DNA of 64,000 bases. It comes from an uncultured virus (IMG/VR IMGVR_UViG_643886092_000009) (Duplodnaviria > Heunggongvirae > Uroviricota > Caudoviricetes). How positions within the stretch are numbered: position 1 is the stretch's first letter; every line of letters starts with the position of its first letter. The stretch lies in the IMG/VR virus record IMGVR_UViG_643886092_000009; one strand, given 5' to 3'. The notes beneath the pieces were generated by a model that worked only from the letters and a program-made list of their open reading frames with translations, did not search any database and had not been told where the DNA came from. Shown one piece after another: positions 300 to 63,628 of the stretch. Made by a program: the position numbers and the translations under genes.

Positions 300-502
300 G
301 TGTACTTTTATTTAGGGGTATATTCGAAACCCAAAATGTAGTTAAACGAACGAAACTAGAGGTTTCATCGTCTGGTCTTGCCACTAGCAACGGTTACATA
401 CAAGTAAGAGTTTTATTTCTAATATAAAGGCAAAATTCAACGAATTATTTCAGATAGATATAGAAACAGCACATAACAACAAAAACGAAGAGGTGAACCC
501 AA

Positions 503-1294
503 ATGACAGAATTCTTGGATAGGCATTTTGCGAAAGAATTTAAGCAACTAATGGCTGAGTTAAGAAGTGAGACAAGATTTAGTATAAAACAACTACCCTC
601 ACCATTCAGCAAACCAACTTTATTAAATAAAGTGTACATCAAAGGGATTGAAGACGAGAAATATAGTAAATTAAACGGTAAGTACGCACCAATTCGTAAA
701 AGTAACTCAATCGTTCGTAACATTTATCACAATAACGGGCAAAAGAAATCAGAAACTACATATACGGCAAAGGATGGTAATGCATTAATCGTAACAAACG
801 AAAATTTACACTTACCGTACCGTTATCGTCCTACAGACAAAGCATTGGAGTATGTAGACTACAGAGAAACAAATGGTGTTCGTACTTTTATTTATTCTAT
901 ACCGAAAAAGTATCTATATAAAACAAAACAAACAGCATTAGTATTAGCTCAAAACACAAAAAGAAGTCATTATGGTGGATTGAAACTGATGTTAACAAAC
1001 GGTCATTCTATCTATTTATACATTGTATCTTTAGGTAACGTGCGTGAACGAGAGGGTAACGTACCATTAATTACAAAGACAGGAAATGACTATAGCGTAG
1101 AGTTACAGAAACTACAAGAATATTGGCTACAAAGGGGTATTATCTTCCCTAAAAACGTATTAGAATTAGAAACACCATATGGAGATTCAACAAACTTAGG
1201 TTATAAAGTATTAGAAGCGGTAGAAGACTATGTAGGTATAGACGAGTTTAGTATTACGGAACGAGCAGAAATGAAAGCGAGACAGGCTTACTAA
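503..1294 (+). CDS. hypothetical protein
   Basis: 263-aa ORF with GAGGTG RBS; no recognisable motif. Confidence 0.8.
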   Translation: MTEFLDRHFAKEFKQLMAELRSETRFSIKQLPSPFSKPTLLNKVYIKGIEDEKYSKLNGKYAPIRKSNSIVRNIYHNNGQKKSETTYTAKDGNALIVTNENLHLPYRYRPTDKALEYVDYRETNGVRTFIYSIPKKYLYKTKQTALVLAQNTKRSHYGGLKLMLTNGHSIYLYIVSLGNVREREGNVPLITKTGNDYSVELQKLQEYWLQRGIIFPKNVLELETPYGDSTNLGYKVLEAVEDYVGIDEFSITERAEMKARQAY

Positions 1295-1316
1295 TTGTTA
1301 TGAACAGATAATACAT

Positions 1317-1345
1317 TTGACAAATACAAGAACTTATGTTATAAT
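1317..1345 (+). promoter_or_regulatory. sigma-A promoter, extended -10
   Basis: TTGACA-17bp-TATAAT with TG. Confidence 0.9.
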
Positions 1346-1395
1346 AGATGTATAAATGATTGGTGATAAGAATTATTTACGAAAGGAGAAAGAGA

Positions 1396-3243
1396 ATGGA
1401 ATATAATGTTGTGAAACACGGAAATAAAGAAGCATACATCATTAAGAATAAAACAACATTCAAAATCGTAAAAGAACTACTAGGTACAGACTACCTAAAC
1501 ACCGTTACAACTGAGTTCATTAAGAATAAGTGTGTACACAATCCGAACTTGGATAAAGGGGTATTAGTTTCAAACCGTAGGTCTTTAAAGGCAAAATTTG
1601 CAAAAGAGCGTATGATGTCAGATGTTGTTATGAACCGATTTTTAGAGCAAGAGATACCCGAAGAACAGTACAGCTTCTTACAACAATACGTAGGAAACTT
1701 AATACTTCATAATAAAGGTGCGGAGAATATTTTCTTAAACCTTGGTCGAGGGGTAAATGAAGAATATTTCCGTAAGAAGGGTATTAAGTTAGCAAACTTA
1801 AACCAAAATGCAAAATGGCGTTTAGCATTCGTGAAAGACATTGTTCATGGCTACTGTTCATTAGGTCATGAGATACGATACGCTTTTACCGCTATAAACG
1901 ACTTTGGAGATAGTTTAGTCTTTGGTAGTACATGTGTTCATGATTTCTTCGAAATAGACGAGCAGTTAGGTGAAAGACTTACTGAATACGTAAATCAAAT
2001 CAGAACACATACAGAAGACTACTATAACGATTACCATTCTTACTATGAAATTCATCGTAAACAAGACCAGTTCATGGCATTGTTAATGCAGTTCGTAAAT
2101 AGTTCTACAAATGAACAAACCTTTAATAAAACAGAATTAAACTATATGAGTACATTCATTGGGTATGGTTTACCGATACCAAGACCTTTAGCAGAGCAAG
2201 TAGGAGACAAGATAATGGACTTCTTTGCTAGAGAATATAAGATGTTAGTAGCCTTTGAACCCTATGATATTGTAACCAAACTGATATATCTTTGTGGTTG
2301 TTTCGCGTATGGGTGTCACGGAACTACGGTAAGTGAATTGAATACAAACTTCCCAGTAAACTACTTAGGTGATAGAATTATGCCTAAGATGGTAGAACAC
2401 CTACTAGAGAAGTTCGATGCGTTAAAGACAGGTACAACCAATAATGATTTCATACAAGTTATGACACAAAACTTAAATATCAATCAGTTCGTTATGTTAT
2501 TAAATAACTTGTCTATGATTAAGAAGCTTACAGGGGTATTAGCACAAGACGATATTTTAACTCTTGAACCAAACCCTACTGAAACGGGTTATAAGTTAAC
2601 ATACAAAGAAATTACGTTATCAAAACAAAGCCATATAGCATCTAAGACTCATGCTACAGAAAGTGCAAAACGGATGAACTTACTATTCGGATTACCACCT
2701 GTAGAGACACGAGAAGATGCGTTGAAAATTTTCATGAATCAGCAAATACAATTGAAACTGAATAAGAGTGTACTAGCAACGAAAGATTTCGCATACTTGA
2801 ATATGTTTGAGTATGAAGAAGGGGTATCGGTTTTCACAACAAAACTCAATGCAGGTGCAGAGAAACTGAAGAACTTTATGCATGAAAACGAAGGAAAAGT
2901 TGTAGCAGAAGATATCGTGTTACAAATTCTAAATAATGACTTTGTAAATAAAGACAAACCAAAAGGCTTAGAATGGTATAACTTAATTATCCAAGAAAAC
3001 AATGTAGCCGAAGCAATGCAAAGTAATAAACCGAGAACAGGGGTAGTTAGAAACCGTTCAAACTTCCCTACAGAAGAGTACGAAGAGTTGTTAGAAAAAG
3101 CAATCAGACATAGGGATGTAGTTGATAAGAAAAGAAAAGGTTTCGCAGTAGACATACTAAAAACAGTATTAACCTACAAGAAAGTGTCACCTAAACAGAA
3201 AAAATTTATAGATGATTTAGAGAGTGTACTACAAGACGTATAA
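1396..3243 (+). CDS. hypothetical protein with a putative Zn-ribbon (CSLGH...GSTC)
   Basis: Long ORF; start moved to ATG 1396 behind GAAAGGAG; motif YCSLGHEIRY...FGSTCVHDF. Confidence 0.75.
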   Translation: MEYNVVKHGNKEAYIIKNKTTFKIVKELLGTDYLNTVTTEFIKNKCVHNPNLDKGVLVSNRRSLKAKFAKERMMSDVVMNRFLEQEIPEEQYSFLQQYVGNLILHNKGAENIFLNLGRGVNEEYFRKKGIKLANLNQNAKWRLAFVKDIVHGYCSLGHEIRYAFTAINDFGDSLVFGSTCVHDFFEIDEQLGERLTEYVNQIRTHTEDYYNDYHSYYEIHRKQDQFMALLMQFVNSSTNEQTFNKTELNYMSTFIGYGLPIPRPLAEQVGDKIMDFFAREYKMLVAFEPYDIVTKLIYLCGCFAYGCHGTTVSELNTNFPVNYLGDRIMPKMVEHLLEKFDALKTGTTNNDFIQVMTQNLNINQFVMLLNNLSMIKKLTGVLAQDDILTLEPNPTETGYKLTYKEITLSKQSHIASKTHATESAKRMNLLFGLPPVETREDALKIFMNQQIQLKLNKSVLATKDFAYLNMFEYEEGVSVFTTKLNAGAEKLKNFMHENEGKVVAEDIVLQILNNDFVNKDKPKGLEWYNLIIQENNVAEAMQSNKPRTGVVRNRSNFPTEEYEELLEKAIRHRDVVDKKRKGFAVDILKTVLTYKKVSPKQKKFIDDLESVLQDV

Positions 3244-3270
3244 TAACAAGCGAGTTTATAGAGAATTAGG

Positions 3271-3300
3271 TAGGAACTGGATGTTATTTTCCAGTTCCTA
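3271..3300 (+). terminator. perfect hairpin abutting the next promoter
   Basis: TAGGAACTGGA...TCCAGTTCCTA. Confidence 0.65.
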
Positions 3301-3329
3301 TTGACATTTTGGGAAACTTATGTTATAAT
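3301..3329 (+). promoter_or_regulatory. sigma-A promoter, extended -10
   Basis: TTGACA-17bp-TATAAT. Confidence 0.9.
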
Positions 3330-7401: not shown

Positions 7402-7441
7402 ATCAAACATCTATTGAATCTAGTAAGAAAGGGGTATTTAT

Positions 7442-8505: not shown

Positions 8506-8943
8506 ATGAAATCAACATTAAACTTAACAAGTCTGCAATTTATGGTATCGGTAATTGTAGAGGATTTAGAAAACTTTAGATTAACAGGTAATAGACTGTT
8601 TGATTTTGAAGAAGTAAGAAATTGTACCAACCTTGATGAATTATTTAAACAGTGGTTATTACAATTCGATGATTTGTCTAGTACCCCTGACGAGGATTTA
8701 GAAGATGTAAAACTAGAATTAAGTGAACATATGAAGTATATGTCTATTTGGAACGTAAGTGAGGTAGAAAGAGCAACGAATGTTAAGTCCTTTAAAGATT
8801 ACTTCGAGGGGTATGAAGGTTTCTCTAAACTTGTAGTTGATTTCTATGAAACTAGTTCTAAAGAAGATGAAGAGTGGGCGAAAACAAAGAACTCACCTGA
8901 GTTCAAAGCAAAGTTTAAAGAACTGACAGGTATGGAAATTTAA
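8506..8943 (+). CDS. hypothetical protein
   Basis: 145-aa ORF with RBS. Confidence 0.7.
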   Translation: MKSTLNLTSLQFMVSVIVEDLENFRLTGNRLFDFEEVRNCTNLDELFKQWLLQFDDLSSTPDEDLEDVKLELSEHMKYMSIWNVSEVERATNVKSFKDYFEGYEGFSKLVVDFYETSSKEDEEWAKTKNSPEFKAKFKELTGMEI

Positions 8944-31234: not shown

Positions 31235-32530
31235 ATGTCAAACGACAAGTTAGAGAGTAACGAGAGATTAAATATCACTCGTAGATATAGACCAAAGTCA
31301 ATGGACGAGTATAAAGGAAACGAAGATTTAAAGAAAGCAGTTTTCAGTTGGTTAAACAATATCAACAAACCACAAGCGATTCTTTTGAAAGGTACTACAG
31401 GTGGGGGTAAAACTTCAATGGCTCGTATTGTAGCCAAAGAATACCTATGTGAAGACCGTGATGAAGAAAAAGGAGCATGTGGTGAGTGTTATAGTTGTAA
31501 GATGATGGATGATTATATTGAAACAGGTAATACAGACGGATTAATGGGGTTACGTGAAATTAATGCTTCAAAAGACTCAGGACTTACTGCAATAAACTCA
31601 TTATTAGAAGAAGCACAATACCCTAATCCAGACGGCTCATGGAAGATATACATTCTCGATGAGTGTCACCGAATCAGTATTCCCGCCCAAAACAGCTTAT
31701 TAAAACTAGTAGAAGAACCACCTGAGAACGTGCTATTCATGTTCTGTACAACTGACCCTGATAAAATGTTAGATACGTTATTAAACCGTTGTAACATTAA
31801 ATTAGACGTTAAGAAACCTTCAGAGGAACAGCTTACACAAATCCTGTTAGATATTTGTGTGAAAGAAGGTATCTCATATGACAGAAAAGGTCTTTCCTTA
31901 ATCGTAGACAGGTCTGAACTTGTTATTAGACAGGCTCTTATGGACTTAGAAAATGTAATTGTACAAACTGAAAGTGCAGAACATCGTTTTGTATCAAAAA
32001 TATTTGATAAGCATCCAAACAGTTTGTATTTCGACTTCTATCGTGCTTTACTCAAACATGACACGCATCAATTTGTTTCTATTATCCACAAGGTCAAAAC
32101 TAAAATGACGGTACAAGAATTCGTTAAAAATTTGACTAACTTTACTAAAAGAGGGATATACATTTGGAATGGCGTGAATCTTGAGGGAATTACGGAGAAC
32201 GAACTAAAAAACATGAAAGAATTGTTTAAACAGTTCAAGTTAGAAGAACTTGCAATGATGATTGAATTCCTAACTACGGTATCAGACGGTGATGTAGAAG
32301 TTAATCTACTTCTTTTAGGATTTAAGGGATTAGAAAAGCCTAAGAACGTACAATCACAAGAAGAGGTAGTCATTGAAGAGAACAAGAACGATATCGAACA
32401 GGAAAACAAAGTAATATCAGGTAATAAAAAAGCCATTACAGAGGAACGAAAACTAAAGAGTATAGAAAGCGTGAAGAATGCGGTAGAAACTGCAACCGCA
32501 GAAGAAGTATGGAATTTGTTTGATAAATAA
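31235..32530 (+). CDS. dnaX: DNA polymerase III gamma/tau-like clamp-loader ATPase
   Basis: RYRP, GTTGGGKTS Walker A, C...CGECYSC Zn site, YILDECH, NSLLKLVEEPP, LNRC. Confidence 0.9.
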   Translation: MSNDKLESNERLNITRRYRPKSMDEYKGNEDLKKAVFSWLNNINKPQAILLKGTTGGGKTSMARIVAKEYLCEDRDEEKGACGECYSCKMMDDYIETGNTDGLMGLREINASKDSGLTAINSLLEEAQYPNPDGSWKIYILDECHRISIPAQNSLLKLVEEPPENVLFMFCTTDPDKMLDTLLNRCNIKLDVKKPSEEQLTQILLDICVKEGISYDRKGLSLIVDRSELVIRQALMDLENVIVQTESAEHRFVSKIFDKHPNSLYFDFYRALLKHDTHQFVSIIHKVKTKMTVQEFVKNLTNFTKRGIYIWNGVNLEGITENELKNMKELFKQFKLEELAMMIEFLTTVSDGDVEVNLLLLGFKGLEKPKNVQSQEEVVIEENKNDIEQENKVISGNKKAITEERKLKSIESVKNAVETATAEEVWNLFDK

Positions 32531-33645: not shown

Positions 33646-33682
33646 GGGGTAGTTAAGGTACGAAAATTACTTATCCTACCCC
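33646..33682. terminator. hairpin GGGGTAG...CTACCCC
   Basis: Inverted repeat after a stop codon. Confidence 0.45.
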
Positions 33683-42838: not shown

Positions 42839-44971
42839 TTGATTGCTCTCGTGGTTGGTTTTATTCTTCCTTTGTTAGTTTGGATAGTTACATTACCTTT
42901 AAAGTTCGCATTATATTTAGCTGAAAAATCGTTAGACGGTTCTAAAAGCTTCCTAACTAAGAAGTATAAGCAAATAAGTGCTAAGGAAAAAGATTATTTC
43001 CAAAAGAATGCAGGGAAAGGTAGCAAACTCGTAAGGTCAACCGCTAAGGTTGGCTTTACTGCTACTAAGATAGGTTTAAACGTAATGGTAAAGTCCATGA
43101 AACTTTTAGTAAAAGTAATCAGATGGACAATCCGAGTTTTAATTTGGATTACGACTCTAGTATCTTTAACCTACACCCTTCTTATCTTTGGTGCACTTGC
43201 GGCTATAATCGCCATAATCGCTTCTGTACAAACACTAGACAAGAGTGGTGGTAATACAGACAGTGCAACACCGAATCAACAAGGTGGTGGCGGTGCAACT
43301 GGTATGGCAGACTACTTTTCCATTGATTGGGGACAAGATTTCAGTAAGCAACTGGATAAGATTGAAGCCGAGAAAGGGGTAGAAGCTAGGAACTGGACGG
43401 AGTTTACGATTATAGCAATGAATACAATGCAGAAAACCAAGAAAGACGGTAAAGCACAAATTATCGTTGCAGGTTTCTTGAATGGGTTAAAAGCGGTAGA
43501 GACAGAACAGAAGTCTTTAACTAGTAAACCACATTTAGCGAAGCAAATGGTTAGATATATTCCTGGCGGAAACCTAGATACGCCATTACAGTTTGATAAT
43601 ACTCATTGGCATGAACTTTCTCCATACTACAACGACTTAAAGTCAGAACGTGGACCGACTGGTTCAGCATATTATTATCCAGACGGGTTTTACGGTATAA
43701 CTCAAAAGTTTAGTAAAGCAGGGGTAGAAGGATTCTTACCAAAACGTACTACACCGATTTATGAAAGAGCATTTAAAGACTTAGGTGTTGAAATGACTCC
43801 TGATAAGTTAAACTGGGTACGTTATGTTGGTAACATTACAAATCAGTACAATGCAGTATTCCTTGAGAAAGGAAACTGGGTTCCGGGTCTAACCGCTGAA
43901 CAATCAAACGATACAGTGTATGTAAACGCATTGATATTAATAAAGTTTGGTGAAATGTATGGTTATGGTGTTAATGAAAAGACTGTTAATCTTTCTAAGT
44001 CAATGTATAAAGGAATGATTGGAGACGAGTATCAGAAATGGTTCTTAGATAAAGGTAAAATGATACAAGGTGCATACGGTATGATTGGTGGACATAAGAA
44101 CTACCCTGCCGATATTAAGAACGGTCAAAGTTATGGTGTTATTTCACCTGACGGACAAGCGCAACAAGGCACATTATTCTCTTATCTAAAAAGTCAGATG
44201 CCACCAAACATTCAACAAAACGTAGACAATAGTAGTGGTTTCAAAACATATAATGCATCTAGGGCGCACTATATGAGGGCTAGATATGATTTAACCGCTT
44301 TACTAACAGGGGTATACGATGTATTTTGGGCATCAAACGCCTTAGGCGTTACACCTCAACAGACTCAACAACCACAACAACCGAATGGTGGAGGACAAAC
44401 GAATCAATCATCAGCAATTGGTGATAAAATCGTAGCCCAAGCCAAGAAATACGCAGAAGACACAAGTTCAAACCGTATAACTTATAGTTATGCAGGTATT
44501 GGTACTACACAAGACTGTTCTTCATTCGTAAACGGTATTTTACGTGAGTTGGGGTATGCGATTGATGGGAAAACATTAACTCCTGAGCCATTAGCAAACG
44601 GTAATTTCAACTATGTAAGGAATACAAGCCAAATGGTAGACGCTGTTAGAAAGAAACCTGAGGTATTAGTTAAGTTAGACGGATATACTGGTACACAAGG
44701 TATACCCCGTTCAGTACTTGAACCTATCTTACAGCCAGGAGACATCCTATTAGCAGGTGACAGTGAGCGTAACCATACTGCAATTTATGTTGGTAGAAAC
44801 TCAAAAGGTGATTATGTAACTATTGAATCCAAAACTAGCTATCCACATCAATTTAGTAGTCATAGTGATATGGAACTTACACAAGGGAAGTATGGTTTCG
44901 GATATGATAGAATCAGAGAAGGAAATACAAAATACAAGTATTTAATTCGTATGGGTAATGTAATCAAATAA
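42839..44971 (+). CDS. membrane-anchored cell-wall hydrolase, C-terminal NlpC/P60-CHAP-like domain (VirB1 analogue)
   Basis: DCSSFVNGIL...LQPGDILL...HTAIYVG; N-terminal TMs. Confidence 0.8.
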   Translation: MIALVVGFILPLLVWIVTLPLKFALYLAEKSLDGSKSFLTKKYKQISAKEKDYFQKNAGKGSKLVRSTAKVGFTATKIGLNVMVKSMKLLVKVIRWTIRVLIWITTLVSLTYTLLIFGALAAIIAIIASVQTLDKSGGNTDSATPNQQGGGGATGMADYFSIDWGQDFSKQLDKIEAEKGVEARNWTEFTIIAMNTMQKTKKDGKAQIIVAGFLNGLKAVETEQKSLTSKPHLAKQMVRYIPGGNLDTPLQFDNTHWHELSPYYNDLKSERGPTGSAYYYPDGFYGITQKFSKAGVEGFLPKRTTPIYERAFKDLGVEMTPDKLNWVRYVGNITNQYNAVFLEKGNWVPGLTAEQSNDTVYVNALILIKFGEMYGYGVNEKTVNLSKSMYKGMIGDEYQKWFLDKGKMIQGAYGMIGGHKNYPADIKNGQSYGVISPDGQAQQGTLFSYLKSQMPPNIQQNVDNSSGFKTYNASRAHYMRARYDLTALLTGVYDVFWASNALGVTPQQTQQPQQPNGGGQTNQSSAIGDKIVAQAKKYAEDTSSNRITYSYAGIGTTQDCSSFVNGILRELGYAIDGKTLTPEPLANGNFNYVRNTSQMVDAVRKKPEVLVKLDGYTGTQGIPRSVLEPILQPGDILLAGDSERNHTAIYVGRNSKGDYVTIESKTSYPHQFSSHSDMELTQGKYGFGYDRIREGNTKYKYLIRMGNVIK

Positions 44972-50235: not shown

Positions 50236-52272
50236 TTGTTCGGGTTAAGCATACCAAACTTTAAAAAGATACTTGGCGAAAAGAAACGTACCATTAAACC
50301 TTGGGGTTTATGGGACACAAGAATAGCTGAGTTTATGAATAAGAACAAAAGTGAACAAGGACCGACTAGACGTGTTAACTTCTATGCAAACACCAATGCT
50401 TTCTATAGTGGTGAGAAGAACGTGTCTTATCTGTATTTAGTAGACCAACTACCTAGTGAATTAGAGTTATCATTCCGTAAAACGATTAGACGAGAGTGTA
50501 AAGCAGGGGTACGTATTACCTTCATTACAAACTTAAACCGAGATACAATTAACTGGGAAAGTCCTACAAATAAGAATAAACTTCAAACATGGAAGAACTT
50601 AGAGAAAGCCAATGATAGAGAGGTTAGTATCTATGAAGCGGCAGGAGAGGTTGGACGTTTAGACCTACAAAACTATAAGAAGAAAAGTATTGAATATTTA
50701 ATCAATGCAGACTTACGTAGAAAGAGAAAGTTATTTAACGTACAAGGTATTATGTTAATTACAGGTGAACGAGGGTTAGCATTTGATGATACGGTTAAAT
50801 CAGTAGAGTCTTCTTGTAAACGTAGTAAAATTAAGATTAAACGTATAACAGGTAATTTAACGGATTACTTAGAAACGTTTAGTCCTTTCTCACTACGTAA
50901 GAATAGTGGGGTAATTAAACGAACTGGTTCAAACGTTATACCTGATGAATTAGTAGCAAGATTAAACTCTTACGACCAAGGTACAGTTGGAACAGGTTCG
51001 ATGTATTGGGGTACTGATATCTATTCTAAGAAACCAGTATTAAAAGAGCCAAAAGTAATAGACACTGATGCAGAGAACTGGTTAATTGCGGCTGAGACTG
51101 GTGGAGGAAAATCCTACTTTGTAAAATCATCTTGTATTCAATTACTTGGACGAAACGATATGGTAGGAACAATTAACGATATCGAGGGTGATGAGTATGA
51201 AGACTTAGGTTACATCATCGCAAACCATAGTAGCGTTGTTATGTTAGATATTGGTGAGTCAGGTGGTTCTTACTTTGACCCTGTAGAGATATACGAAACA
51301 GGAGTTGCAGATTTAGATGAAGAAATGCACTCTTTATCAGTTTCCTTTACAAAAAGTATGTTTAAAACATTAGTAGGAGACAAGCTACTACAAAAGCGTG
51401 ACTGGGCTGAAACAATCATCGAGAATGGGGTAGAAGAGTTCTACGCTGATTTAGGGGTAGTAAACAGTGATAGTAAGACTTGGAAGAAAACAAAAGGTAA
51501 AACTATCTTTGATGTTTACGAAAAGATTAAAATATACAAACCTCATAAATTAAATTCTGAGTTTGAAGCGGATAAAGAGTTAGTTATCGCTCAATTAGAG
51601 TCAAGATTAGGTAGAAACAGTCGTACAACAGGTAGATTCAGTAATCGTGTACAATTCGACTCTATCCGTGATGCGAAACTAGTAATTAACTCATTCGGTA
51701 TGAAAGGTCGTTCAGCTTCTACAGTAAGTGCGGTAGACATGGCGTTAATGCAGTTATACACCGCTTTAATCTCTCATTTACGTTCTGTATTTGCGAAATC
51801 AAGGGGTATGTATAACTTTAAAATTTGGGAAGAGTTCCAACGTTGGGGTGGATTCCCTGGTGCGGAAGAAACACTTAAAACTCCATTATCAGGTGGACGT
51901 AAATTAGGTGATATTAATATTATTATCACAAACAGACCTTCCGAATTACTAGAAACAGACCGATTCAAAATCTTTGACTCAATCACTACATTTGCAATTG
52001 GGGCTGTAGGTGACTCGAAAGTTCGTCATGAACTATGTGAACGTCTACAAATGCCGTTAATGAAGAAAGAATTAGATTTAATTGAAAGAAACCGTAAGAA
52101 ATCCGATGATAATACAACAGAGTATGAAGACTTCGATGCAATCAAGATGAATCCATACGCAAAAGCTTTCCTTGTTGGATTAGAGAGACGAGATTTCTCT
52201 ATTACGAAAATTGTATTACCTGATAGCTTGTCTAAAACAAGACTATTCCAAACTGGTGTAAAAATAGGATAA
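50236..52272 (+). CDS. VirB4-like conjugation ATPase
   Basis: Walker A AETGGGKS; INDIEGDEY; Walker B KIWEEFQRW; GGRKLG. Confidence 0.8.
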   Translation: MFGLSIPNFKKILGEKKRTIKPWGLWDTRIAEFMNKNKSEQGPTRRVNFYANTNAFYSGEKNVSYLYLVDQLPSELELSFRKTIRRECKAGVRITFITNLNRDTINWESPTNKNKLQTWKNLEKANDREVSIYEAAGEVGRLDLQNYKKKSIEYLINADLRRKRKLFNVQGIMLITGERGLAFDDTVKSVESSCKRSKIKIKRITGNLTDYLETFSPFSLRKNSGVIKRTGSNVIPDELVARLNSYDQGTVGTGSMYWGTDIYSKKPVLKEPKVIDTDAENWLIAAETGGGKSYFVKSSCIQLLGRNDMVGTINDIEGDEYEDLGYIIANHSSVVMLDIGESGGSYFDPVEIYETGVADLDEEMHSLSVSFTKSMFKTLVGDKLLQKRDWAETIIENGVEEFYADLGVVNSDSKTWKKTKGKTIFDVYEKIKIYKPHKLNSEFEADKELVIAQLESRLGRNSRTTGRFSNRVQFDSIRDAKLVINSFGMKGRSASTVSAVDMALMQLYTALISHLRSVFAKSRGMYNFKIWEEFQRWGGFPGAEETLKTPLSGGRKLGDINIIITNRPSELLETDRFKIFDSITTFAIGAVGDSKVRHELCERLQMPLMKKELDLIERNRKKSDDNTTEYEDFDAIKMNPYAKAFLVGLERRDFSITKIVLPDSLSKTRLFQTGVKIG

Positions 52273-53143: not shown

Positions 53144-54172
53144 ATGTTAAGTGGAATAACAAGTTGGATTATGGAACACAAGAAAACCACGCTTGCAATA
53201 GCAGGGGTAGTTATCATTAGTTTCATATCCTATAATGTTGCGGCAGACCGACAAGCCAAGAAGGAAGCTGAGGTTTCAGCAGAGAAAAGCGCAAAAGAAG
53301 AAAACGTTAAGTCTGAATTCGACATTGAACAAGAGAAACTAGTGAAGAAACATGGCGCACCAAAGAAAGGTTTCCGTTGGACAGACGATGGTAAGCTTCA
53401 AGCAATAGGAGATAAAGGTATGACCAGTGAGGACGTTATTTATGCATATGTTCGTGGTCTATCAACTCTAGATTTCTCTAATGCACAAAGATATAGCTAT
53501 AAGACTGATGTAGTAAAATCATACCAAGGATTCTACGAAGCAGAACAAGATTTTACATACAATAAGAACTTCCAAAAAGGTATGTATAAACAAGTACTAT
53601 TAAGTCTTAGACCAAACAAAATTGAAGATACAGCTTTATTCGCTGATTATAAAACTTCAATTACAATGAATATCGAGTTATTAGATTTAAGTAACAAGGA
53701 TTTTTGGTTAAAAGACAAAGATAAAATCTTCCAAGACTTGAAAAAGTACAAAGTGAATGAGCGTGATACAACAAAAATGAAAGATTACTTATTCAACTAC
53801 GTACTAAGTTACTATTCAGGTGAGAAGCCAAAAACTAGAAATGTAAAAGTAAACTTTGTAATGCAACAAACTATGGATGGTTCATGGTTAGTTACAAATG
53901 ATGCTGAATTAGATGCATTAGCGAAGTACCAAGACGGTGAAATCGTAGTAAACCAAATCTTAGACCAGTTTGAGCGTTGGATTGGTAAGTCAGGTGAAGA
54001 TGTAACTCCTGATGCTAAGATTGAGAACACTGAAATTGGTAATGTAAACGGTAATATTGAGAATAAGAAAGATTCAGATAACGTTAACCCTTATAGTAGA
54101 CCTAACAATGATAATGATAAAATCAATCAAAACGCACCGAAAGACGATGCACCAACTATCATTGAGAGGTAA
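53144..54172 (+). CDS. bitopic membrane protein, NTF2-like extracellular domain (VirB8-like candidate)
   Basis: N-term TM; EDVIYAYVRGLSTLDF...KVNFVMQQTMDGSWLV. Confidence 0.55.
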   Translation: MLSGITSWIMEHKKTTLAIAGVVIISFISYNVAADRQAKKEAEVSAEKSAKEENVKSEFDIEQEKLVKKHGAPKKGFRWTDDGKLQAIGDKGMTSEDVIYAYVRGLSTLDFSNAQRYSYKTDVVKSYQGFYEAEQDFTYNKNFQKGMYKQVLLSLRPNKIEDTALFADYKTSITMNIELLDLSNKDFWLKDKDKIFQDLKKYKVNERDTTKMKDYLFNYVLSYYSGEKPKTRNVKVNFVMQQTMDGSWLVTNDAELDALAKYQDGEIVVNQILDQFERWIGKSGEDVTPDAKIENTEIGNVNGNIENKKDSDNVNPYSRPNNDNDKINQNAPKDDAPTIIER

Positions 54173-54344: not shown

Positions 54345-54362
54345 ACAGAAAGGTAGGAAGTT

Positions 54363-54553: not shown

Positions 54554-56884
54554 ATGAGTTTCGACTCACGAAACTTTGTCTCTGACGATGACTTAGCAAA
54601 AGAACGTCAGGATAGGCAAGACAGACAAAACCCACCAAGCGTAGAACATGGTCAAGGTGGAGACCCGTTTTCTGATTTGGATATAGATGCTATGTTCAGT
54701 AATCCTTCTCCTTCTTCACCAACTGATAATAACAACTCGTTTAACTCATTCGGTGATGCACCTCCACTGGGGCAACCTTTAGGTGGTGGAAATGACCCTT
54801 TCTTAAACCCAATTGGAGGTATACCACCGATGGGAGGTATGAACCAACCACCTACACCATTCGGTCAACCACCACAACAACCTAAGAGTGACGAAGAGAA
54901 AATAATGGATGCAGGAAAGAAGAGTTGGTCATTCATTAAAGACTTAGGTAGTGGATTTCATGATTTAAAATCAACACCTACAAACTGGTCTATGACTGGT
55001 AGGAACTTAGTTAAAATGTCAGCAATCGCTTGTGGTTTATCCTTTGCAACTATGATGATATTTAAGAAAGACGTAATGGACTTCATGATGGGTAGCGGTT
55101 TTACCGCAATTGTAGGGGTATTGTTATTATCTTTCAATAATGATAAAGCACGAATGATAAAAGGTACAGACGGAGAAGAGGAACAGCCCTTTGATATTAA
55201 TAAAATAGAGGGAGACCCTTTACCACAAGATGATATCTTTGCGAATGCATTTGCAACTGAACCTAACATGGTAGTTAACTTAGATAAACCACCATTAGAA
55301 GAAGTACAGCCTTTTGACTCCTATGAAGAAGATGAAGACGAAGGAGAAGAGGATGACGATGAATTTGATGATGGTTGGGACGAGTTCGATGAAGAAGAAG
55401 ACGATGAATACGATGAGGAAGACGATGAAATAACAGAATTTGTTACAGTAGATGAAGCACCTACTGATATAGCAACTGTCTTAACTGATGTAGACCAAGT
55501 ACCCGCAGGTATGTATACAAGACATTTCTTATATGAAAACTATAAGAAAGCCTTAACAAGTATTACACCATCTTATAGTGATACAATCTATTTAGATGAA
55601 GATGAGGATGACGAGTGGGATGCATACAGTAGACTGATTCGAGAAGTTCAACAACAAATGGACTTAGAATCAGGGGCAGACGATTACGAAAGTGATTTAT
55701 CTGAAATTCTTTCTGTAGAAAAACGTCTATTAACTGTTTATGTAGAAGCAACAAGACCGAAGAAGCTTAAAAACAGTAAGATAGAAGAGTTTAACCGAGA
55801 ATTATCAAATATCGTTTCAAGGGTAAAAGGAAGACTAGTAGAAGGAAGATACTCACAAACAATAGCAGTTGGTAACACAATTTACATTACAATCTTTACA
55901 GGTGAAACAGCAAGTGTATCTGTTAAAGACGCTATTATAAAAGAGCAAGATTTCTTCTTAAATACAGACAACCGTATTCCAGTTGTAATGGGCTTTAACG
56001 AATTAGGAGACACAATTAAAACTGATTTATATGATGTGGAATCTATCCTAACAGCAGGTATGCCAAGGGGTGGTAAAACATTCTCTGTTAAAACGGTAAT
56101 GTCTCAAATGGTTCAATTTTGTAGTCCATCAGAAGTTAATTTCTACTTTGCAGACGTAAAAGGTAAAGTATCTGACTGGTATCAGTTCAGAACACCTCAT
56201 GTTAGAAGGTTTGAAAGTAACCCACAAGACATCATAACAATGTTAACTCACCTAACAGAAGTAGAAGGACCGAGACGTGAGAAGATAATGGCAGAAGTAG
56301 GGGTAACAAACTTAAAAGACTATAATCAAGTTCCGCATGATGTTGAACTTCCTATGATTTATGTTGTTATAGATGAAATGGCAACTCTAATGCAGAAGTT
56401 AACAGACAAGGATAAAAAGTTATTCCATGCAAGAATGGTCGATTTAGTAACGAAAATGCCAGGGTTTGGACTTAGATTATGGGGTATTCCTCACTTAGTT
56501 AAGAATGATATCATCCCTAAAACAGTATCAGACTTAATACCTTGTAAGATATCTGTTAAAGGTGATGAGAGTCACGTAGAAGCTACAACTGGTGCAAAAC
56601 CAAGTAAGTTCAAATTTAAATTATCACACGTAGGGGATTGTGCAGTAAACATGCCATCAATCTCTAGTGACGTATTCTTTATGCACTCATTTATCTTAGC
56701 TAAGAACGGTACAGGGGTAACTCGTGTATTAGATTATCAAGCGAAGTTATGGGAGAAACTAGAGCCTGATTCCATAAAAGGTTCACTTGCCTATCAACTA
56801 GACAATACAAACAAGCAAAAAGTAATATTAGATAAGTTAGACTTACCTAGTGAGCCTGTATTTGGTAAAGATGGAATGTACTAG
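54554..56884 (+). CDS. FtsK/SpoIIIE-family membrane ATPase (DNA translocase / coupling protein)
   Basis: Two TMs, acidic linker, IPVVMG...SILTAGMPRGGKT Walker A, PSEVNFYFADVK, PMIYVVIDEM Walker B. Confidence 0.85.
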   Translation: MSFDSRNFVSDDDLAKERQDRQDRQNPPSVEHGQGGDPFSDLDIDAMFSNPSPSSPTDNNNSFNSFGDAPPLGQPLGGGNDPFLNPIGGIPPMGGMNQPPTPFGQPPQQPKSDEEKIMDAGKKSWSFIKDLGSGFHDLKSTPTNWSMTGRNLVKMSAIACGLSFATMMIFKKDVMDFMMGSGFTAIVGVLLLSFNNDKARMIKGTDGEEEQPFDINKIEGDPLPQDDIFANAFATEPNMVVNLDKPPLEEVQPFDSYEEDEDEGEEDDDEFDDGWDEFDEEEDDEYDEEDDEITEFVTVDEAPTDIATVLTDVDQVPAGMYTRHFLYENYKKALTSITPSYSDTIYLDEDEDDEWDAYSRLIREVQQQMDLESGADDYESDLSEILSVEKRLLTVYVEATRPKKLKNSKIEEFNRELSNIVSRVKGRLVEGRYSQTIAVGNTIYITIFTGETASVSVKDAIIKEQDFFLNTDNRIPVVMGFNELGDTIKTDLYDVESILTAGMPRGGKTFSVKTVMSQMVQFCSPSEVNFYFADVKGKVSDWYQFRTPHVRRFESNPQDIITMLTHLTEVEGPRREKIMAEVGVTNLKDYNQVPHDVELPMIYVVIDEMATLMQKLTDKDKKLFHARMVDLVTKMPGFGLRLWGIPHLVKNDIIPKTVSDLIPCKISVKGDESHVEATTGAKPSKFKFKLSHVGDCAVNMPSISSDVFFMHSFILAKNGTGVTRVLDYQAKLWEKLEPDSIKGSLAYQLDNTNKQKVILDKLDLPSEPVFGKDGMY

Positions 56885-56916: not shown

Positions 56917-58203
56917 GTGTTTTATTTGCGAGTAATGTTAGAAAGTATATCCAATGAAGACTTATATTTTGCCTTACAAAAGTATGGTGAGAAATTAGCA
57001 GACAATAAGAAAGATTATAGTCAAGTAAAAGCGGAAGAGTTTGAGAGGTTACAGCTTCTTAGACCTCTTCCAGTATTAGATGAACGGAGTCTGATATCCG
57101 AAGAGGTAGAAGAAGATTATGAAATACAATTAAAAGCTTCCGAGTCAATAGAGCATATTACATTAGACTCTATTCTACCACATGAGATTACAAGTCATAT
57201 TGAAGGTGTCTTTGAGAAGCTAAACAGTAATGTAAACTTAGATTTAGTTTCGGAAGATGAGCCAATTGATTACACAAAAGAAGAACCTCCAGTTGCTATT
57301 ATAGATGAAGAAGAGGATGAAGAAATTGTAGATGATGAAATTATAGACGATGATGTCATTGAAGACGATGAAATAGAAGATGAAGAACTAGAAGATGATG
57401 AACTAGAAGACGAAGACGAGGAAGAAATAATTGAAGATGACGATGAAGAAGAATTGTTAGACGATGATGAGGATGAAGAAGACCTTGAAGAAGACTTTGA
57501 GGAAGAGGAAGAAGAGGAATTCTTAGAAGACGAAGAAGATGAAGAGATTATAGAGGAAGACGAAGATGACTTTGAGGATGAGGAAGAGTTGGAAGACGAA
57601 GAAGATGACTTTGAGGATGAGGAAGAGTTGGAAGAGGAAGAAGAGTCCTATGAACCTGAGCCTGAACCTATAATCGAAGAAGTCAAACTAGTAAAACCAG
57701 TCATTACACCTCCAATCGTAGAAAAGAAAGAGAAAGTTCAAGCTTTCGAACCAGTGTTTAAAATGGATGCACCAGTCATTAAGAAGACTGAACCAGTATT
57801 CAAGAAAGATACACCAGTTGTAGCACCTCCAAAACCTGAGTTGAAGAAAGAAGAACCTGTTCAAAGTCAATTCGATGTTCCAAATAATCCAAGACCGAGT
57901 CGTAGAGCTAATTCAAACTCACTAAGAATGCAAAGCATAGAAGGTAGTGAAGAAGACTTCATTAAAAGCATAATGAACAGTCAAAATTCCAAAGTAACTC
58001 CACCTTCATCGAATGTCAATCCATCTTCTCCAAAAGTAGAAGAAGTAAAAGTAGAAAACTTACCTCCAGACCCAATTTCGTACCTAAGACTTCATCCGAG
58101 GTCGAAGGAAAACGAGGTCAAAAAGCTATATTCACCTAAAGTAGTAGATGACTATATTAATAGTGGTATCATAACAAGGGCTAGAGGGGTATTATTAATT
58201 TAA
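56917..58203 (+). CDS. acidic/Pro-rich protein with a putative C-terminal winged-helix domain
   Basis: D/E tract, P/K linker, C-term PISYLRLHPRSKENEVKKLYSPKVVDDYINSGIITRARGVLLI. Confidence 0.65.
   Translation: MFYLRVMLESISNEDLYFALQKYGEKLADNKKDYSQVKAEEFERLQLLRPLPVLDERSLISEEVEEDYEIQLKASESIEHITLDSILPHEITSHIEGVFEKLNSNVNLDLVSEDEPIDYTKEEPPVAIIDEEEDEEIVDDEIIDDDVIEDDEIEDEELEDDELEDEDEEEIIEDDDEEELLDDDEDEEDLEEDFEEEEEEEFLEDEEDEEIIEEDEDDFEDEEELEDEEDDFEDEEELEEEEESYEPEPEPIIEEVKLVKPVITPPIVEKKEKVQAFEPVFKMDAPVIKKTEPVFKKDTPVVAPPKPELKKEEPVQSQFDVPNNPRPSRRANSNSLRMQSIEGSEEDFIKSIMNSQNSKVTPPSSNVNPSSPKVEEVKVENLPPDPISYLRLHPRSKENEVKKLYSPKVVDDYINSGIITRARGVLLI
57562..57635 (+). repeat. 39-bp-period tandem duplication in the acidic tract
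   Basis: GAAGATGACTTTGAGGATGAGGAAGAGTTGGAAGA at 57562 and 57601. Confidence 0.8.
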
Positions 58204-58246: not shown

Positions 58247-58591
58247 GTGTCGATTAAAGTAACAGCAGTAAGTTTTAGTTTCGCAAAAGCAATGGATGAA
58301 AACAGAAACGGTTCATGTGGGTTCTGTAGGGTTATCTTAAATGGGGTAATCACAATAAACAGGGTGAGAGTTATTAAGAAAGATGCAGACTATATTGTAC
58401 AAATGCCTGTAACTCCTTGTAGGTCTGTAGAAGAGAATGCAATTAAGTCAGTTGTACAAATAACAGATAGAGAGACGATGTCGGAAATAGAAACAGCAGT
58501 TTTAAAGGAGTATAACGAGATATTAAAGAATACAAAAGTCTATTCGAAGAAGCCCTCTAGAAATAATAATCAAACTAAAACATACAAGTAG
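58247..58591 (+). CDS. SpoVG-family nucleic-acid-binding protein
   Basis: GFCRVILNGVITINRVRVI...IVQMP...ITDRE...IETAVLKEY. Confidence 0.75.
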   Translation: MSIKVTAVSFSFAKAMDENRNGSCGFCRVILNGVITINRVRVIKKDADYIVQMPVTPCRSVEENAIKSVVQITDRETMSEIETAVLKEYNEILKNTKVYSKKPSRNNNQTKTYK

Positions 58592-58599
58592 AGAAGTTA

Positions 58600-58628
58600 A
58601 AGCCGTTGTGTAGAACAACGGCTATTTT
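58600..58628 (+). terminator. hairpin terminator
   Basis: AGCCGTTG...CAACGGCTATTTT. Confidence 0.6.
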
Positions 58629-58646
58629 AATTAGGAGGAAGGTTAA

Positions 58647-60233
58647 ATGGCGAAACGAACGGTTAAATACTATAATGATAGATTACAAGGCTCTATGAAC
58701 GAAGCAGACTGTGATAATTTAGAGCATATTTTAAAAATGAAAGAAGTAAACGGAAGTATTGACTCATTGAAACATACAATCTATGCTTTATCCGATGAAG
58801 AAGTGGCAAGAATACAACGAGAAAAGAAAGTAGACCCATCTATTTCAAAGGAGAAAGGTACACTAGCGGATAATCAAACACTAGGAACAGCTTACATGTA
58901 CTATTCAGGCGACTGTATTATTGGAGATAGTGTAGGTTTAGGGAAAACTGTACAGGTATCAGCCCTTATTAACTTAAAGAGAAAACAAAACCATGATAAC
59001 GGATTACCTTTCCGCTATTTATTCTTAACGGAGAAAACACTAGTAGAACAGGCGGTAAGAGAGTTAACTCGTTTTACAAGACAGTATGTACATGAGTTAA
59101 CTGGGGAAAAGAAAGAGAACGTAAAATGGCGTGAAGAAATGTGGGACGGGCATAAAGGTGGTATTGTTGCTCCACACTCTTTACTAAAACAGCAAGTCTT
59201 TCATTCATGGTTAGACGATATGTTAGACGAGTATGGTTTAGCAGAAGGAAGCTATTATTTTGATTATCTATTTATAGATGAATCGAGTTTACTAGGTAGT
59301 ACAAGCACACAACTCTATAAGTATGCAGAACTATTAAGAAGGTATGCAAAACATGTTATCTTAATGAATGCAACACCATTCGAAAGTAATTTAGATACAT
59401 TCTATGGTCAATTAAACTTCTTAGACCCAAATTTAATGCCAGCTAAGACTACATTCAAGAAGATATACTACGTATTAGAGTATGGACATGGTCAGAAGAA
59501 GTGGGGTGTTCACAATGGTAAATATAAGAACGCACACGTATTTAGGCATCAAGTGGGGTATTTCTATTTCTATCAAACTCGTAAACAGTTAGGTGCAGAA
59601 ATGAAGAATACAACCTATGAGATTATAACAAGAGAAATGACAAAGGAACAAACAGAGTTAATGAAGCTAACTGATATGTACGGTTATGTATATGATTGTC
59701 CTACGTATTTAGACTCTGATATCCCATTCGATGAAGAGAATGTACCGAAGTTAGACATGTTAGAAGAATTACTAGAAAACAAAATCAAGGTAGGAGAACA
59801 GGTATTAATCTTCTGTCACTATAAAGAATCACAAAGAAGATTACAAGATTGGTTTGAGAACCGTGGATATGATACTGAAATTTTAAATGGCGATATTACA
59901 AACCGAGAAGAACGAAACGGAATTGTAAACGCCTTTAAAGAGAAAGAATATGAAGTATTAATAACTTCAGTTCAGAAAGGGTTAAACTTTGGAGACGTAC
60001 CACATTTAATCTTCTATTCATTTAGTACAAACCCAAACAAAATGATTCAGATGGAAGGTCGTATTACTCGTTCATTCCATATTGAAAATAAAAACTTCTA
60101 TCTACTAGCACATGAAGGTAGAGAGTTAAACAAACTGAAGAAAGATGTTAAGAAGACCTTACAGTCAAGTCGTGACTTCTCTAGTGACGATTTAAGTGCA
60201 GTAGTTGAAATGTTACTAAACCTTATGGATTAA
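58647..60233 (+). CDS. SNF2-family SF2 helicase/translocase
   Basis: GDSVGLGKT, FIDES, NATPFES, VLIFCHY, KGLNF, QMEGRITR. Confidence 0.85.
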   Translation: MAKRTVKYYNDRLQGSMNEADCDNLEHILKMKEVNGSIDSLKHTIYALSDEEVARIQREKKVDPSISKEKGTLADNQTLGTAYMYYSGDCIIGDSVGLGKTVQVSALINLKRKQNHDNGLPFRYLFLTEKTLVEQAVRELTRFTRQYVHELTGEKKENVKWREEMWDGHKGGIVAPHSLLKQQVFHSWLDDMLDEYGLAEGSYYFDYLFIDESSLLGSTSTQLYKYAELLRRYAKHVILMNATPFESNLDTFYGQLNFLDPNLMPAKTTFKKIYYVLEYGHGQKKWGVHNGKYKNAHVFRHQVGYFYFYQTRKQLGAEMKNTTYEIITREMTKEQTELMKLTDMYGYVYDCPTYLDSDIPFDEENVPKLDMLEELLENKIKVGEQVLIFCHYKESQRRLQDWFENRGYDTEILNGDITNREERNGIVNAFKEKEYEVLITSVQKGLNFGDVPHLIFYSFSTNPNKMIQMEGRITRSFHIENKNFYLLAHEGRELNKLKKDVKKTLQSSRDFSSDDLSAVVEMLLNLMD

Positions 60234-62425: not shown

Positions 62426-62429
62426 CTAG

Positions 62430-62609
62430 ATGGGTTTTCTAACAGACTTTATTATTTTATCAGTAGTACCAAGTATAGCGTTATTGTTAACAAAGAAGTT
62501 TCCAATGAAACTAAGAATTGTATCAGTTATCATATGGGTTATCATTGTATGTATACTATTAAACACAGAAGCATATAAAGTAGACGGATGCTTAAAAGGT
62601 TGTAAATAA
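62430..62609 (+). CDS. 59-aa membrane microprotein (not in ORF track)
   Basis: MGFLTDFIILSVVPSIALLL...GCLKGCK*; fills the gap between two ORFs. Confidence 0.55.
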   Translation: MGFLTDFIILSVVPSIALLLTKKFPMKLRIVSVIIWVIIVCILLNTEAYKVDGCLKGCK

Positions 62610-62623
62610 GAGAGGGTAATTAA

Positions 62624-62962
62624 ATGAGTACGGAACTTCAATCTATGCAATTAATAGAGAAAATAGTAGAACATAAGGTTAAACTTCTATTACTTAGAGC
62701 AGAAGAACAAAAGCTAGTTGAGTTTGAAGAAAATCATTTACGTGTAAACGGATTACAGTTACATATACCAAGTGTCGTAGCACATACAGAGAAAACATTA
62801 GAAATTAGAAAAGAATATGCAAACAGAATAAAAGCAGTAGGAAAACAGAATGAAAAAGTAATGACTCTATTAAATGCCATGTACCCAAACAAGGAAGAAT
62901 TGGAGAGAACACTTAATAGTGAAACAGTAAAAGCGTATCAATCAGGAAAGTATTCCATATAA
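62624..62962 (+). CDS. small helical protein
   Basis: 112-aa ORF, GAGGG RBS. Confidence 0.7.
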   Translation: MSTELQSMQLIEKIVEHKVKLLLLRAEEQKLVEFEENHLRVNGLQLHIPSVVAHTEKTLEIRKEYANRIKAVGKQNEKVMTLLNAMYPNKEELERTLNSETVKAYQSGKYSI

Positions 62963-62977
62963 AAGGGGTAGGAAGTT

Positions 62978-63289
62978 ATGTTAAACTTTACAAAAGCAGT
63001 AGTAAAGCATATGCAGAAGTATATGAATGAGTTAAAGGACTTGAATGCAGAGGAAGAACGAGTAGTTACAGATTTAAAATTCGTAATGGAAACAAGAAAG
63101 AAAGTAAACGATATTTTAGGTATTTTTGAAGCAGAGGAAGAGTTATTAAACAAGAGAGTACATTTTAATAAACAAAAGAAACTAGTATGGTCAAAATTAT
63201 TAGCGGTGGTAGAGTTTGCAAGTGAATTAGATGCAGAGGAAGAAATGAAACAAATGATTGAAACGATTATGAAAGGTAGAGGGATATGA
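62978..63289 (+). CDS. small helical protein
   Basis: 103-aa ORF. Confidence 0.7.
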   Translation: MLNFTKAVVKHMQKYMNELKDLNAEEERVVTDLKFVMETRKKVNDILGIFEAEEELLNKRVHFNKQKKLVWSKLLAVVEFASELDAEEEMKQMIETIMKGRGI

Positions 63290-63603
63290 CAAATAAGGAA
63301 AGTATCATAAACGCCTTAGTAAGATGTCATAATGCAATCGTCCAGTTAAAGGAACTAGAAGAGTTAAGAAAAGAAGCGGTAGAGATTGATTCTACTAATT
63401 TAAACTTAGATTATATCATGAAGAAGCATAATGAAACAGTACGAGTTCAAGAAATGTATAATAGAAACATTGAAAAAGAGTATGCTAGTTATCAAGCTAT
63501 ATTAAAACTAGCAGAAGAGTTAGGGTATAGTGAGAAAGAGTTAAAACATAAAAGTAAGTTAAGAGTAGAAGAAATAATCAAGTCAGCGGAGAAAGAAGCA
63601 TAA
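63286..63603 (+). CDS. small helical protein
   Basis: 105-aa ORF with ATGA coupling. Confidence 0.7.
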   Translation: MTNKESIINALVRCHNAIVQLKELEELRKEAVEIDSTNLNLDYIMKKHNETVRVQEMYNRNIEKEYASYQAILKLAEELGYSEKELKHKSKLRVEEIIKSAEKEA

Positions 63604-63628
63604 GTTAAAATAGAAACGAGGGGTAATT

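Follow-up and report, generated by a model that had tools for sequence, protein, structure and literature searches.

Short DNA words that are written many times into a replicon and read by a dedicated machine are known from several systems. The FtsK orienting polar sequences (KOPS) and the SpoIIIE recognition sequences (SRS) are short, G-rich octamers, strand-polarised and over-represented. Chi sites are likewise short, G-rich and over-represented, are co-oriented with replication and differ between genera. The uptake signal sequences (USS) of Haemophilus and the DNA uptake sequences (DUS) of Neisseria occur as hundreds of evenly spaced copies, at 1–2 per kb, which are written via codon and dipeptide choice and serve as a self tag. 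In Streptomyces, the FtsK-like transfer ATPase TraB recognises the repeated 8-mer of clt and works without a relaxase. The single-strand initiation sites (ssi) and single-strand origins of rolling-circle plasmids, ICEBs1 and IncQ plasmids allow priming on a strand that has been made single-stranded. Primases start at short sites as well, which for the phage T7 enzyme are GGGTC, TGGTC and GTGTC. Here we describe a word, GGGGTA, that shares features with these systems. It was noticed in a stretch of 64,000 nucleotides filed as an uncultured virus (IMG/VR IMGVR_UViG_643886092_000009), the whole of which is called the window below. An earlier note, made from the letters of this window, had proposed that the word is a directional or self-recognition code for an FtsK-like motor of the element. 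The window turned out to belong to the giant Bacillus thuringiensis plasmid pXO16, and we tentatively connect the word with the priming of DNA synthesis.

The window is nearly identical to part of a 349.6-kb plasmid found in ten B. thuringiensis records, with 100% identity over window positions 40000–60000. Searches of viral collections returned no true relative in IMG/VR and no near-identical phage record. According to a section of a review, NC_018516.1 (pBTHD789-1) is pXO16, a large conjugative plasmid of serovar israelensis, and the same section states that transfer of single-stranded DNA (ssDNA) was shown for it (PMC6199540). Reviews report that neither a relaxase nor an origin of transfer (oriT) was found in pXO16, that it mobilises plasmids lacking oriT as well as chromosomal fragments of at least 791 kb, and that its 350 kb are transferred within minutes. 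All counts for the whole plasmid were made on NZ_CP039723.1, a 349,603-bp circle. Between the window and this record there is an indel near window position 20462, beyond which the register is lost. One strand of NZ_CP039723.1 carries every annotated coding sequence. GC skew and AT skew are positive in all bins of the plasmid, and the sense strand is purine- and G-rich.

Counting gave 124 matches to GGGGTA in the window, 121 on the plus strand (315..63625, about one per 530 bp) and three on the minus strand. This is close to the earlier note, which had counted about 120 forward and about three reverse copies, the latter at 8682, 33677 and 44703, and had estimated that about ten would be expected by chance. 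Dinucleotide shuffles of the window contained 13.6 ± 3.3 matches on both strands together; the largest value was 23, and none of the 100 shuffles reached 124. The forward copies follow the consensus W-GGGGTA-K. The preceding base is A in 83 of the 121 copies, T in 32, C in 3 and G in 3, and the following base is T in 50, G in 48, A in 18 and C in 5. As had been noted, the word occurs in all three reading frames, namely as GGG-GTA at 2821 (open reading frame (ORF) 1360–3243), as xxG-GGG-TAx at 6480 (ORF 5467–6579) and as xGG-GGT-Axx at 1134 (ORF 503–1294), and further copies are intergenic. Two of the reverse copies lie inside ORFs, one at 8682..8687 (plasmid position 71980) and one at 44703..44708 within ORF 42839–44971 (plasmid position 108002). 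The third belongs to a plus-strand hairpin in noncoding DNA after a small ORF (33646..33682; plasmid position 96976). Its 5′ arm is the forward copy GGGGTAG at 33646 and its 3′ arm the reverse copy at 33677. RNA folding pairs the two arms, which agrees with the hairpin that the note had described.

The same polarity was obtained for the whole plasmid, with 658 forward and 5 reverse copies. Each 10-kb bin contains 15–26 forward copies. The earlier note had suggested mapping the polarity around the replicon; no switch point was seen. Two of the five reverse copies are 3′ arms of hairpins paired to a forward copy. Markov models of orders 0, 1, 2 and 3 predict 61, 65, 130 and 207 forward copies, respectively. 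The reverse complement was observed 5 times, compared with 4.8–11.7 expected from the Markov models. As it occurs at its expected frequency and the excess is confined to one strand, the pattern fits a signal that is read on single-stranded nucleic acid. At each word length from five to eight, the motif is the most over-represented k-mer, and AGGGGTAG was found 232 times, compared with 6.7 expected, and not once on the opposite strand. The end of the word is sharply defined: GGGGT is followed by A in 658 of 725 cases and by G in 23, and position 5 is T in 658 cases versus 58 for the other three bases combined.

Selection on GGGGTA acts at the nucleotide level. Among the 658 sites, 326 are read as GGG-GTA, 85 and 84 fall into the other two frames, and 163 are intergenic or at ORF edges. 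As a control, codons were shuffled synonymously within each gene, so that the protein sequence and the codon usage were kept. The shuffled genes contained 119.5 ± 9.2 copies inside ORFs compared with the 495 observed (z = 40.7). Thus the enrichment, which the earlier note had left to be checked against such backgrounds, survives the Markov models as well as the codon shuffle. GGG-GTA writes 326 of the 598 Gly-Val dipeptides, whereas GGG accounts for only 889 of 5,949 Gly codons. The dipeptides themselves are in excess (Gly-Val 598 versus 463 expected, Gly-Tyr 371 versus 270). The earlier note had also pointed to two genes, which it took to be strongly codon-optimised, from which the word is missing. 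Both indeed lack it (29775–30596 and 35102–35980), but this is unremarkable and not significant, since 18% of plasmid ORFs of 700–1000 nt have no copy, compared with a Poisson expectation of 21%. Other skewed words were seen in the window. A second one, GAAGACGA, occurs 34:1 and has the top maximal-order Markov z among 8-mers (6.0); GATGAAGA occurs 37:0 and GAAGAAGA 31:0, and many G-rich words are skewed. GAAGACGA, GATGAAGA and GAAGAAGA are probably runs of acidic codons on the purine-rich sense strand.

The copies are spaced more evenly than chance allows. The coefficient of variation (CV) of the gaps is 0.71, compared with 1.00 ± 0.04 for random placement (minimum 0.885 in 2,000 simulations), and of 56 six-mers with a comparable frequency GGGGTA has the lowest CV. 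No gap exceeds 2,071 bp, while the largest gaps of the simulations had a mean of 3,770 and a minimum of 2,301. Gaps below 100 bp number 31 where 113 were expected, and gaps above 1,500 bp number 13 where 37 were expected. The even spacing persists when internal sites are analysed alone and when the intergenic sites are held fixed. The choice made at individual slots depends on distance in the same manner. The motif is used at 13% of the Gly-Val slots whose nearest other site is less than 50 bp away, at 39% for distances of 50–100 bp, at 51% for 100–200 bp, at 61% for 200–400 bp and at 75% beyond 400 bp. Copies at gene starts are found in 9% of genes if another site lies within 100 bp and in 27–36% otherwise. 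Internal sites are spread uniformly along genes. Genes of 300 bp and longer carry about 1.6–2.0 sites per kb, so that the number is proportional to gene length, and 33–45% of the genes shorter than 700 nt have no motif. These spacing rules and the scaling with gene length show that the signal is counted per distance along the molecule and not per gene. It is the distance that is under selection, rather than the genes or any individual site.

For comparison with the host, two co-resident plasmids and one Bacillus cereus phage were analysed (150 kb in all). The density of GGGGTA in pXO16 is 1.9 per kb, compared with 0.34 and 0.16 per kb on the sense strand of the two co-resident israelensis plasmids (50 kb each), where it is near the Markov expectation. 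In a 50-kb one-directional, G-rich block of phage BCP78, 12 copies were counted and 11.5 were expected. This phage likewise encodes an FtsK-like protein. Since the co-resident plasmids and the phage are not enriched, the reader is not a host machine acting alone. Together with the codon shuffle and the relatives described below, these results uphold one part of the original proposal, namely that the code is specific to the element and is neither a host nor a codon artefact.

Relatives of the plasmid carry the same kind of code. Homologues of the FtsK-like protein were found at 94, 73, 53 and about 48% identity on contigs of 155–360 kb. A profile scan of JGI/ENA metagenome contigs gave 47 loci, many of them on contigs of 150–410 kb, and in the distant relatives the coupling ATPase is 28–39% identical and the GC content is 31–47%. 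In pXO16 and the metagenome loci a common gene order is seen: a VirB4-like ATPase, the FtsK-like ATPase, two unknown proteins, SpoVG, an SNF2 helicase, GyrB and GyrA. Essentially all genes of the related loci are on one strand, and apparent minus-strand ORFs are shadows of longer plus-strand genes. The relatives were analysed over about 21 kb each, within 10 kb of the coupling ATPase. Among the 38 loci that reach 8 kb, 34 show a polarity of the core GGGTA of fivefold or more, and in 22 the core is among the top three over-represented 5-mers. The exceptions are L024 (73:22) and L026 (74:23), in which GGGGTA itself is found 59:2 and 59:1, L042 (24:5) and L055, a weak unrelated hit. When 37 loci were pooled (695,767 bp, including some near-duplicates), GGGTA occurred 2,145 times in forward orientation compared with 681 expected, and 156 times in reverse compared with 160 expected. 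The flanks of the core are specific to lineages, with GGGGTA, GGGTATT, GGGTATC and AGGGTA as variants. Sites are placed more regularly than by chance in 23 of the 24 related loci that remain after redundancy is removed. Between relatives at about 85% DNA identity, 64–79% of the sites are kept compared with 49–54% for background 5-mers, and at about 69% identity 8–12% are kept compared with 14–21% for the background. Thus the positions of the sites turn over while their density stays.

The loci L009–L054 and window positions 46517–60233 outline a large lineage of 150–410 kb one-directional elements in which the type IV secretion system (T4SS) genes are followed by SNF2 and gyrase genes. This lineage is apparently undescribed, and the term 'pXO16-like' was absent from the literature searched. 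The profile of the coupling ATPase matched 388 clusters at E ≤ 1e-30 among 1.84 billion representatives, and the best 150 were all below 1e-145. One relative is a 2.6-kb fragment in a Clostridia genome bin, and the names of some related contigs mention human gut and fermentation metagenomes. Inocle elements were considered as members of the same family and rejected, as the part of their description that was consulted gives two replichores with an ORF switch, in contrast to the one-directional elements seen here.

What is needed, then, is a process that runs in one direction and on one strand, that wants a site every 1–2 kb but gains nothing from a second site within 100 bp, and that has a reader borne by the element. 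The priming of discontinuous DNA synthesis has all four of these properties. Among the alternatives that the earlier note had listed beside the motor, a primase site now ranks first. Our tentative reading is that GGGGTA, with the family core GGGTA, is a single-strand punctuation signal whose copies are start sites for the element's own split DnaG-type primase. The statistics, the spacing-dependent selection, the conservation across the family and the presence of the primase parts on the plasmid come from the data, while the reader of the motif, the direction of replication and the transferred strand are inferred. The pXO16 family keeps its sites at a steady density of about two per kb on the G-rich sense strand. 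The primase would consist of a stand-alone zinc-ribbon protein as the reader and a separate Toprim_2 protein as the catalytic part. Reading the template 3′ to 5′, it would leave the A uncopied and begin synthesis opposite the T, giving the primer pppACCCC. Priming sites would be needed about every kilobase on whichever strand is single-stranded. If replication runs in one direction, the motif strand would be the template of the lagging strand. During conjugation it would be the transferred strand, and 350 kb of ssDNA would enter the recipient with the 5′ end first and be copied discontinuously. From what is established about DNA synthesis, a strand entering in this way could be converted promptly to duplex only by repeated priming. 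At the chance density of one site per 5.7 kb, sites would be too sparse for priming, so that selection for more copies would be needed.

The plasmid encodes a phage-like replication set of its own, with a family-A polymerase with exonuclease, a DnaB-like helicase, RNase H, an NAD ligase, gyrase, a UvrD-like helicase and a clamp loader, the ATPase of which lies in the window (31235..32530, plus strand). A stand-alone Zn_ribbon_DnaG protein is encoded at plasmid NZ_CP039723.1 150,701–151,273 (E 2.4e-12) and a separate Toprim_2 protein at 279,102–279,887, while the N domain of the DnaG catalytic core was found nowhere on the plasmid. Judged from the sequence, the primase of the element thus appears to be split into a zinc-ribbon protein and a distant Toprim_2 protein. 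The zinc-ribbon protein is conserved at 95–55% identity. One homologue is located on a 359,548-bp B. toyonensis contig, and the contig with the 94% homologue of the coupling ATPase is equally 359,548 bp long. According to parts of a study of Firmicute DnaG (Larson 2010, PMC2978363), the enzyme starts at d(CTA) or d(TTA) from the middle T, and its specificity is set by the zinc-binding domain, which can act in trans and is conserved within a class. The near-invariant GTA end of the motif matches the N-T-A rule of Firmicute DnaG, and the element has a zinc-ribbon reader of its own. The motif lies on the G-rich strand and is co-oriented with all genes, which makes its strand the lagging-strand template if forks move with transcription. 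The run of G would give a primer pppACCC(C), as in T7. The ssi and single-strand origins resemble the proposed sites in that priming takes place on a strand made single-stranded; they are, however, structured elements of 100–300 nt present once or twice per replicon, whereas pXO16 has 658 unstructured hexamers.

Several points weigh against priming. The genome of T7, whose primase is the best known of the sequence-specific ones, was tried as a precedent for a primase footprint and gave a negative answer: GGGTC occurs 39 times on the plus and 55 times on the minus strand compared with 33 expected, and is not polar. The motif differs from known primase sites in that six to eight bases are specified, where three to five are usual, and in leaving a selected footprint throughout the genome, which T7 lacks. 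A primase specificity of six to eight bases would be unprecedented, as known primases read three according to the portion of PMC2978363 consulted. Replication in one direction is deduced from the uniform GC skew and the gene direction, for which transcription could be a sufficient cause. Only Bacillus-type relatives yielded the zinc-ribbon protein, the distant ones having been examined within 10 kb of the coupling ATPase. The preferences at the flanks (A or T before, G or T after) are not accounted for by priming. Finally, the strand of the sites is always that of the mRNA, and the motif occupies the ribosome-binding position in 127 of 472 ORFs, so that a reader at the RNA level is conceivable.

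The original proposal of reading by the FtsK-like motor was not borne out. An FtsK-family ATPase is indeed encoded near the sites (54554..56884, plus strand). Its model can be superposed both on the alpha-beta motor of FtsK (6t8b, E 1e-18) and on TcpA, the coupling protein of pCW3 (6o1w, E 5e-18), and the protein is best described as the FtsK/TcpA-like coupling ATPase of the transfer system, without a gamma domain. The gamma domain PF09397, the C-terminal winged helix by which such translocases read KOPS and SRS, was not matched in any of the six frames of the plasmid, while the control search was positive for 8 of 14 genomes. Plain helices (719–761) form the end of the model, and the C-terminal tail is poorly conserved. 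The C-terminus was therefore rejected as a gamma-like reader. In contrast to KOPS and SRS, the sites show no convergence at a terminus (dif), inverted copies are not avoided, and GGGGTA is about 20 times denser than KOPS. A pump for double-stranded DNA of the TraB type fits no better, as the clt repeats are clustered at one locus, whereas the sites of pXO16 are dispersed over 349.6 kb and the section of the review cited above reports ssDNA transfer (PMC6199540). The protein encoded directly downstream of the ATPase (56917..58203, plus strand, 428 aa), which had been named as a possible binder, matches no Pfam family and occurs in one related locus only. A different role in transfer is an unlikely but serious contender. 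Here the motif on the exported strand would be recognised by a relaxase-less machinery, either the coupling ATPase or an unknown partner, and export of ssDNA would start, or restart, at many places and in one direction, so that the origin of transfer would be distributed. Reading of one strand fits ssDNA export, and the lack of a reported relaxase and oriT and the mobilisation of oriT-less plasmids and large chromosomal fragments speak for it. The motif accompanies a conserved T4SS module in 47 loci, comprising the VirB4-like ATPase (50236..52272, plus strand, 678 aa; PDB 4ag5, E 1.2e-5; conserved in 36 related loci), the FtsK/TcpA-like ATPase and a conserved 342-aa protein (53144..54172, plus strand). 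The density, even spacing and use of codon choice also resemble USS and DUS, although USS and DUS are written in either orientation, are read by a competence receptor and act in the natural transformation of chromosomes, while GGGGTA is kept in one orientation (658:5) by a family of conjugative plasmids. However, one or a few entry sites would be enough for transfer, and the strong selection against gaps above 2 kb would have no evident purpose. No domain that reads sequence could be recognised in the coupling ATPase, and the conserved module yielded no DNA-processing enzyme. The 342-aa protein was considered as a hidden relaxase or nuclease and rejected. Its fold combines a long N-terminal helix with tandem NTF2-like domains, all matches being weak (best E 4.8e-3), and presumably it is a scaffold of the VirB8/TcpC type. 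Rather more doubtful is a combined version, in which each GGGGTA would be an entry point of relaxase-free conjugation and would then seed synthesis of the complementary strand in the recipient via the private primase.

The word could also act at the level of RNA, as GGGGUA in polycistronic mRNA or on the non-template strand, read by a factor of the element for antitermination, mRNA stabilisation or ribosome retention. We regard this as possible, but improbable. All 658 forward sites are sense-oriented, and the reverse complement is not avoided. The motif stands at Shine-Dalgarno (SD) distance in the 127 ORFs mentioned, and in noncoding DNA no other SD-like word is as common (149 copies versus 98 of GGAGG). 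In the window such copies include 7431..7436, 5 nt before the ATG at 7442, and those at 8954, 12951, 13248, 13560, 18220, 22762, 31223, 33340, 50227, 54176, 54544, 58237, 62965 and 63620, all on the plus strand. Contigs from four RNA-library runs, which carry no information on read ends, strand or level, extend over many genes without a break, for 12.3 kb in one case and 10.6 kb in another. A plain SD sequence was nevertheless rejected, because only a minority of sites are in SD position, 495 of 658 are inside ORFs, and the base after GGGGT is A, though pairing with the 3′ end of 16S rRNA favours G. The family variants GGGTAT and GGTATC are poor SD matches. Counting per distance and not per gene, with many short genes lacking the motif, also speaks against an RNA signal. 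Host-expressed genes on the co-resident plasmids and phage BCP78 make no use of the motif, so that the reader is not simply the host ribosome or RNA polymerase. Antitermination of the ops/RfaH type, whose ops word we take GGGGTA to resemble, was rejected: such a system calls for a NusG paralogue that reads the non-template strand, and the NusG family PF02357 gave no match in any frame of the plasmid, while the control was positive in 10 of 14 genomes. There is a very small chance that the word is a Chi-like site that tames the host exonuclease AddAB or RecBCD and guards linear or rolling-circle intermediates. In a replicon whose tail runs in one direction, such sites should all point the same way, and the inverse orientation need not be avoided. 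But Chi is read by the host and is species-specific, whereas GGGGTA is specific to the element and carried across hosts. Its GGGTA core is shared by relatives with GC contents of 31–47% from different habitats, one of them in a Clostridia bin, replicons of the same host group are not enriched, and no AddAB-like gene was noted in the plasmid annotation. Highly unlikely too is a logic of restriction and modification, by which sites in one orientation escape enzymes that need head-to-head sites or are targets of a strand-specific modification. An arrangement of sites on one strand makes T7 refractory to a type III enzyme, and the arrangement seen here resembles it. The best-conserved protein of the module is an SNF2-family helicase (58647..60233, plus strand; up to 65% identity, 30 loci). 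Escape, however, favours few or no sites and not a tenfold, evenly spaced excess, and a methyltransferase was not noted in the conserved module. As a passive by-product of composition, of codon or dipeptide usage or of repeated gene families the pattern is hardly conceivable. In its favour are the purine- and G-richness of the sense strand, the skew of many G-rich words and the many paralogues reported for pXO16 in a section of the review (PMC6199540). Yet the excess is tenfold over Markov orders 0–1 and fourfold over the synonymous shuffle, use of slots that depends on spacing cannot arise passively, the forward word is enriched while its reverse complement is at expectation, and the similarly G-rich, one-directional block of BCP78 has no excess. 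The synonymous shuffle, the spacing-dependent use of slots and the BCP78 block exclude this explanation.

Some further features of the plasmid were recorded. No tRNA genes are present on it, and its long noncoding stretches matched no Rfam family. Four noncoding stretches of 1.1–1.7 kb lie within plasmid positions 280,611–284,019, 336,685–338,376 and 348,435–349,603. They contain 7 copies of the motif, all forward, and are candidates for a replication origin. RNA-library contigs from three runs and two studies start or end at window 45030–45275, in the gap between ORFs 42839–44971 and 45226–45828, which is a weak hint of a transcription-unit boundary. The 12.3-kb contig spans window 45274–57591. 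At window 57300–57610, inside ORF 56917–58203, there is an acidic GAAGA-rich repeat at which joints of RNA-library contigs skip 39 and 174 bases and several loose ends occur; this is probably a length-variable repeat or an assembly ambiguity. An 885-aa protein with SH3 repeats and a C39-like peptidase domain is encoded at window 9433–12090 and may be the cell-wall hydrolase that reviews place in the transfer locus. The protein encoded at plasmid 218,893–221,190 is a single chain of 765 aa with about five separate helix-turn-helix modules, an unusual multi-helix-turn-helix DNA binder.

In the literature searched, which included pXO16 reviews and did not extend to the primary pXO16 sequence papers, no description of a GGGGTA signal was found. 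The data point to the code as an unrecognised signal that guides the copying or the transfer of giant plasmids. Conjugation of pXO16 has been a puzzle for decades, and a strongly selected one-way word offers a concrete cis-acting handle on its mechanism. The code could also serve as a sequence signature for finding conjugative elements of 150–410 kb in gut, fermentation and other metagenomes. If every site were an origin of transfer, this would explain the missing oriT and relaxase, the code kept throughout a family of giant plasmids, and the mobilisation of 'non-mobilisable' plasmids and megabase pieces of chromosome that carry the word by chance. If it is a transfer tag, the DNA to be conjugated would be chosen in a new way. 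If instead it is a private primase code, pXO16 would be the first replicon known to shape its whole sequence around its primase.

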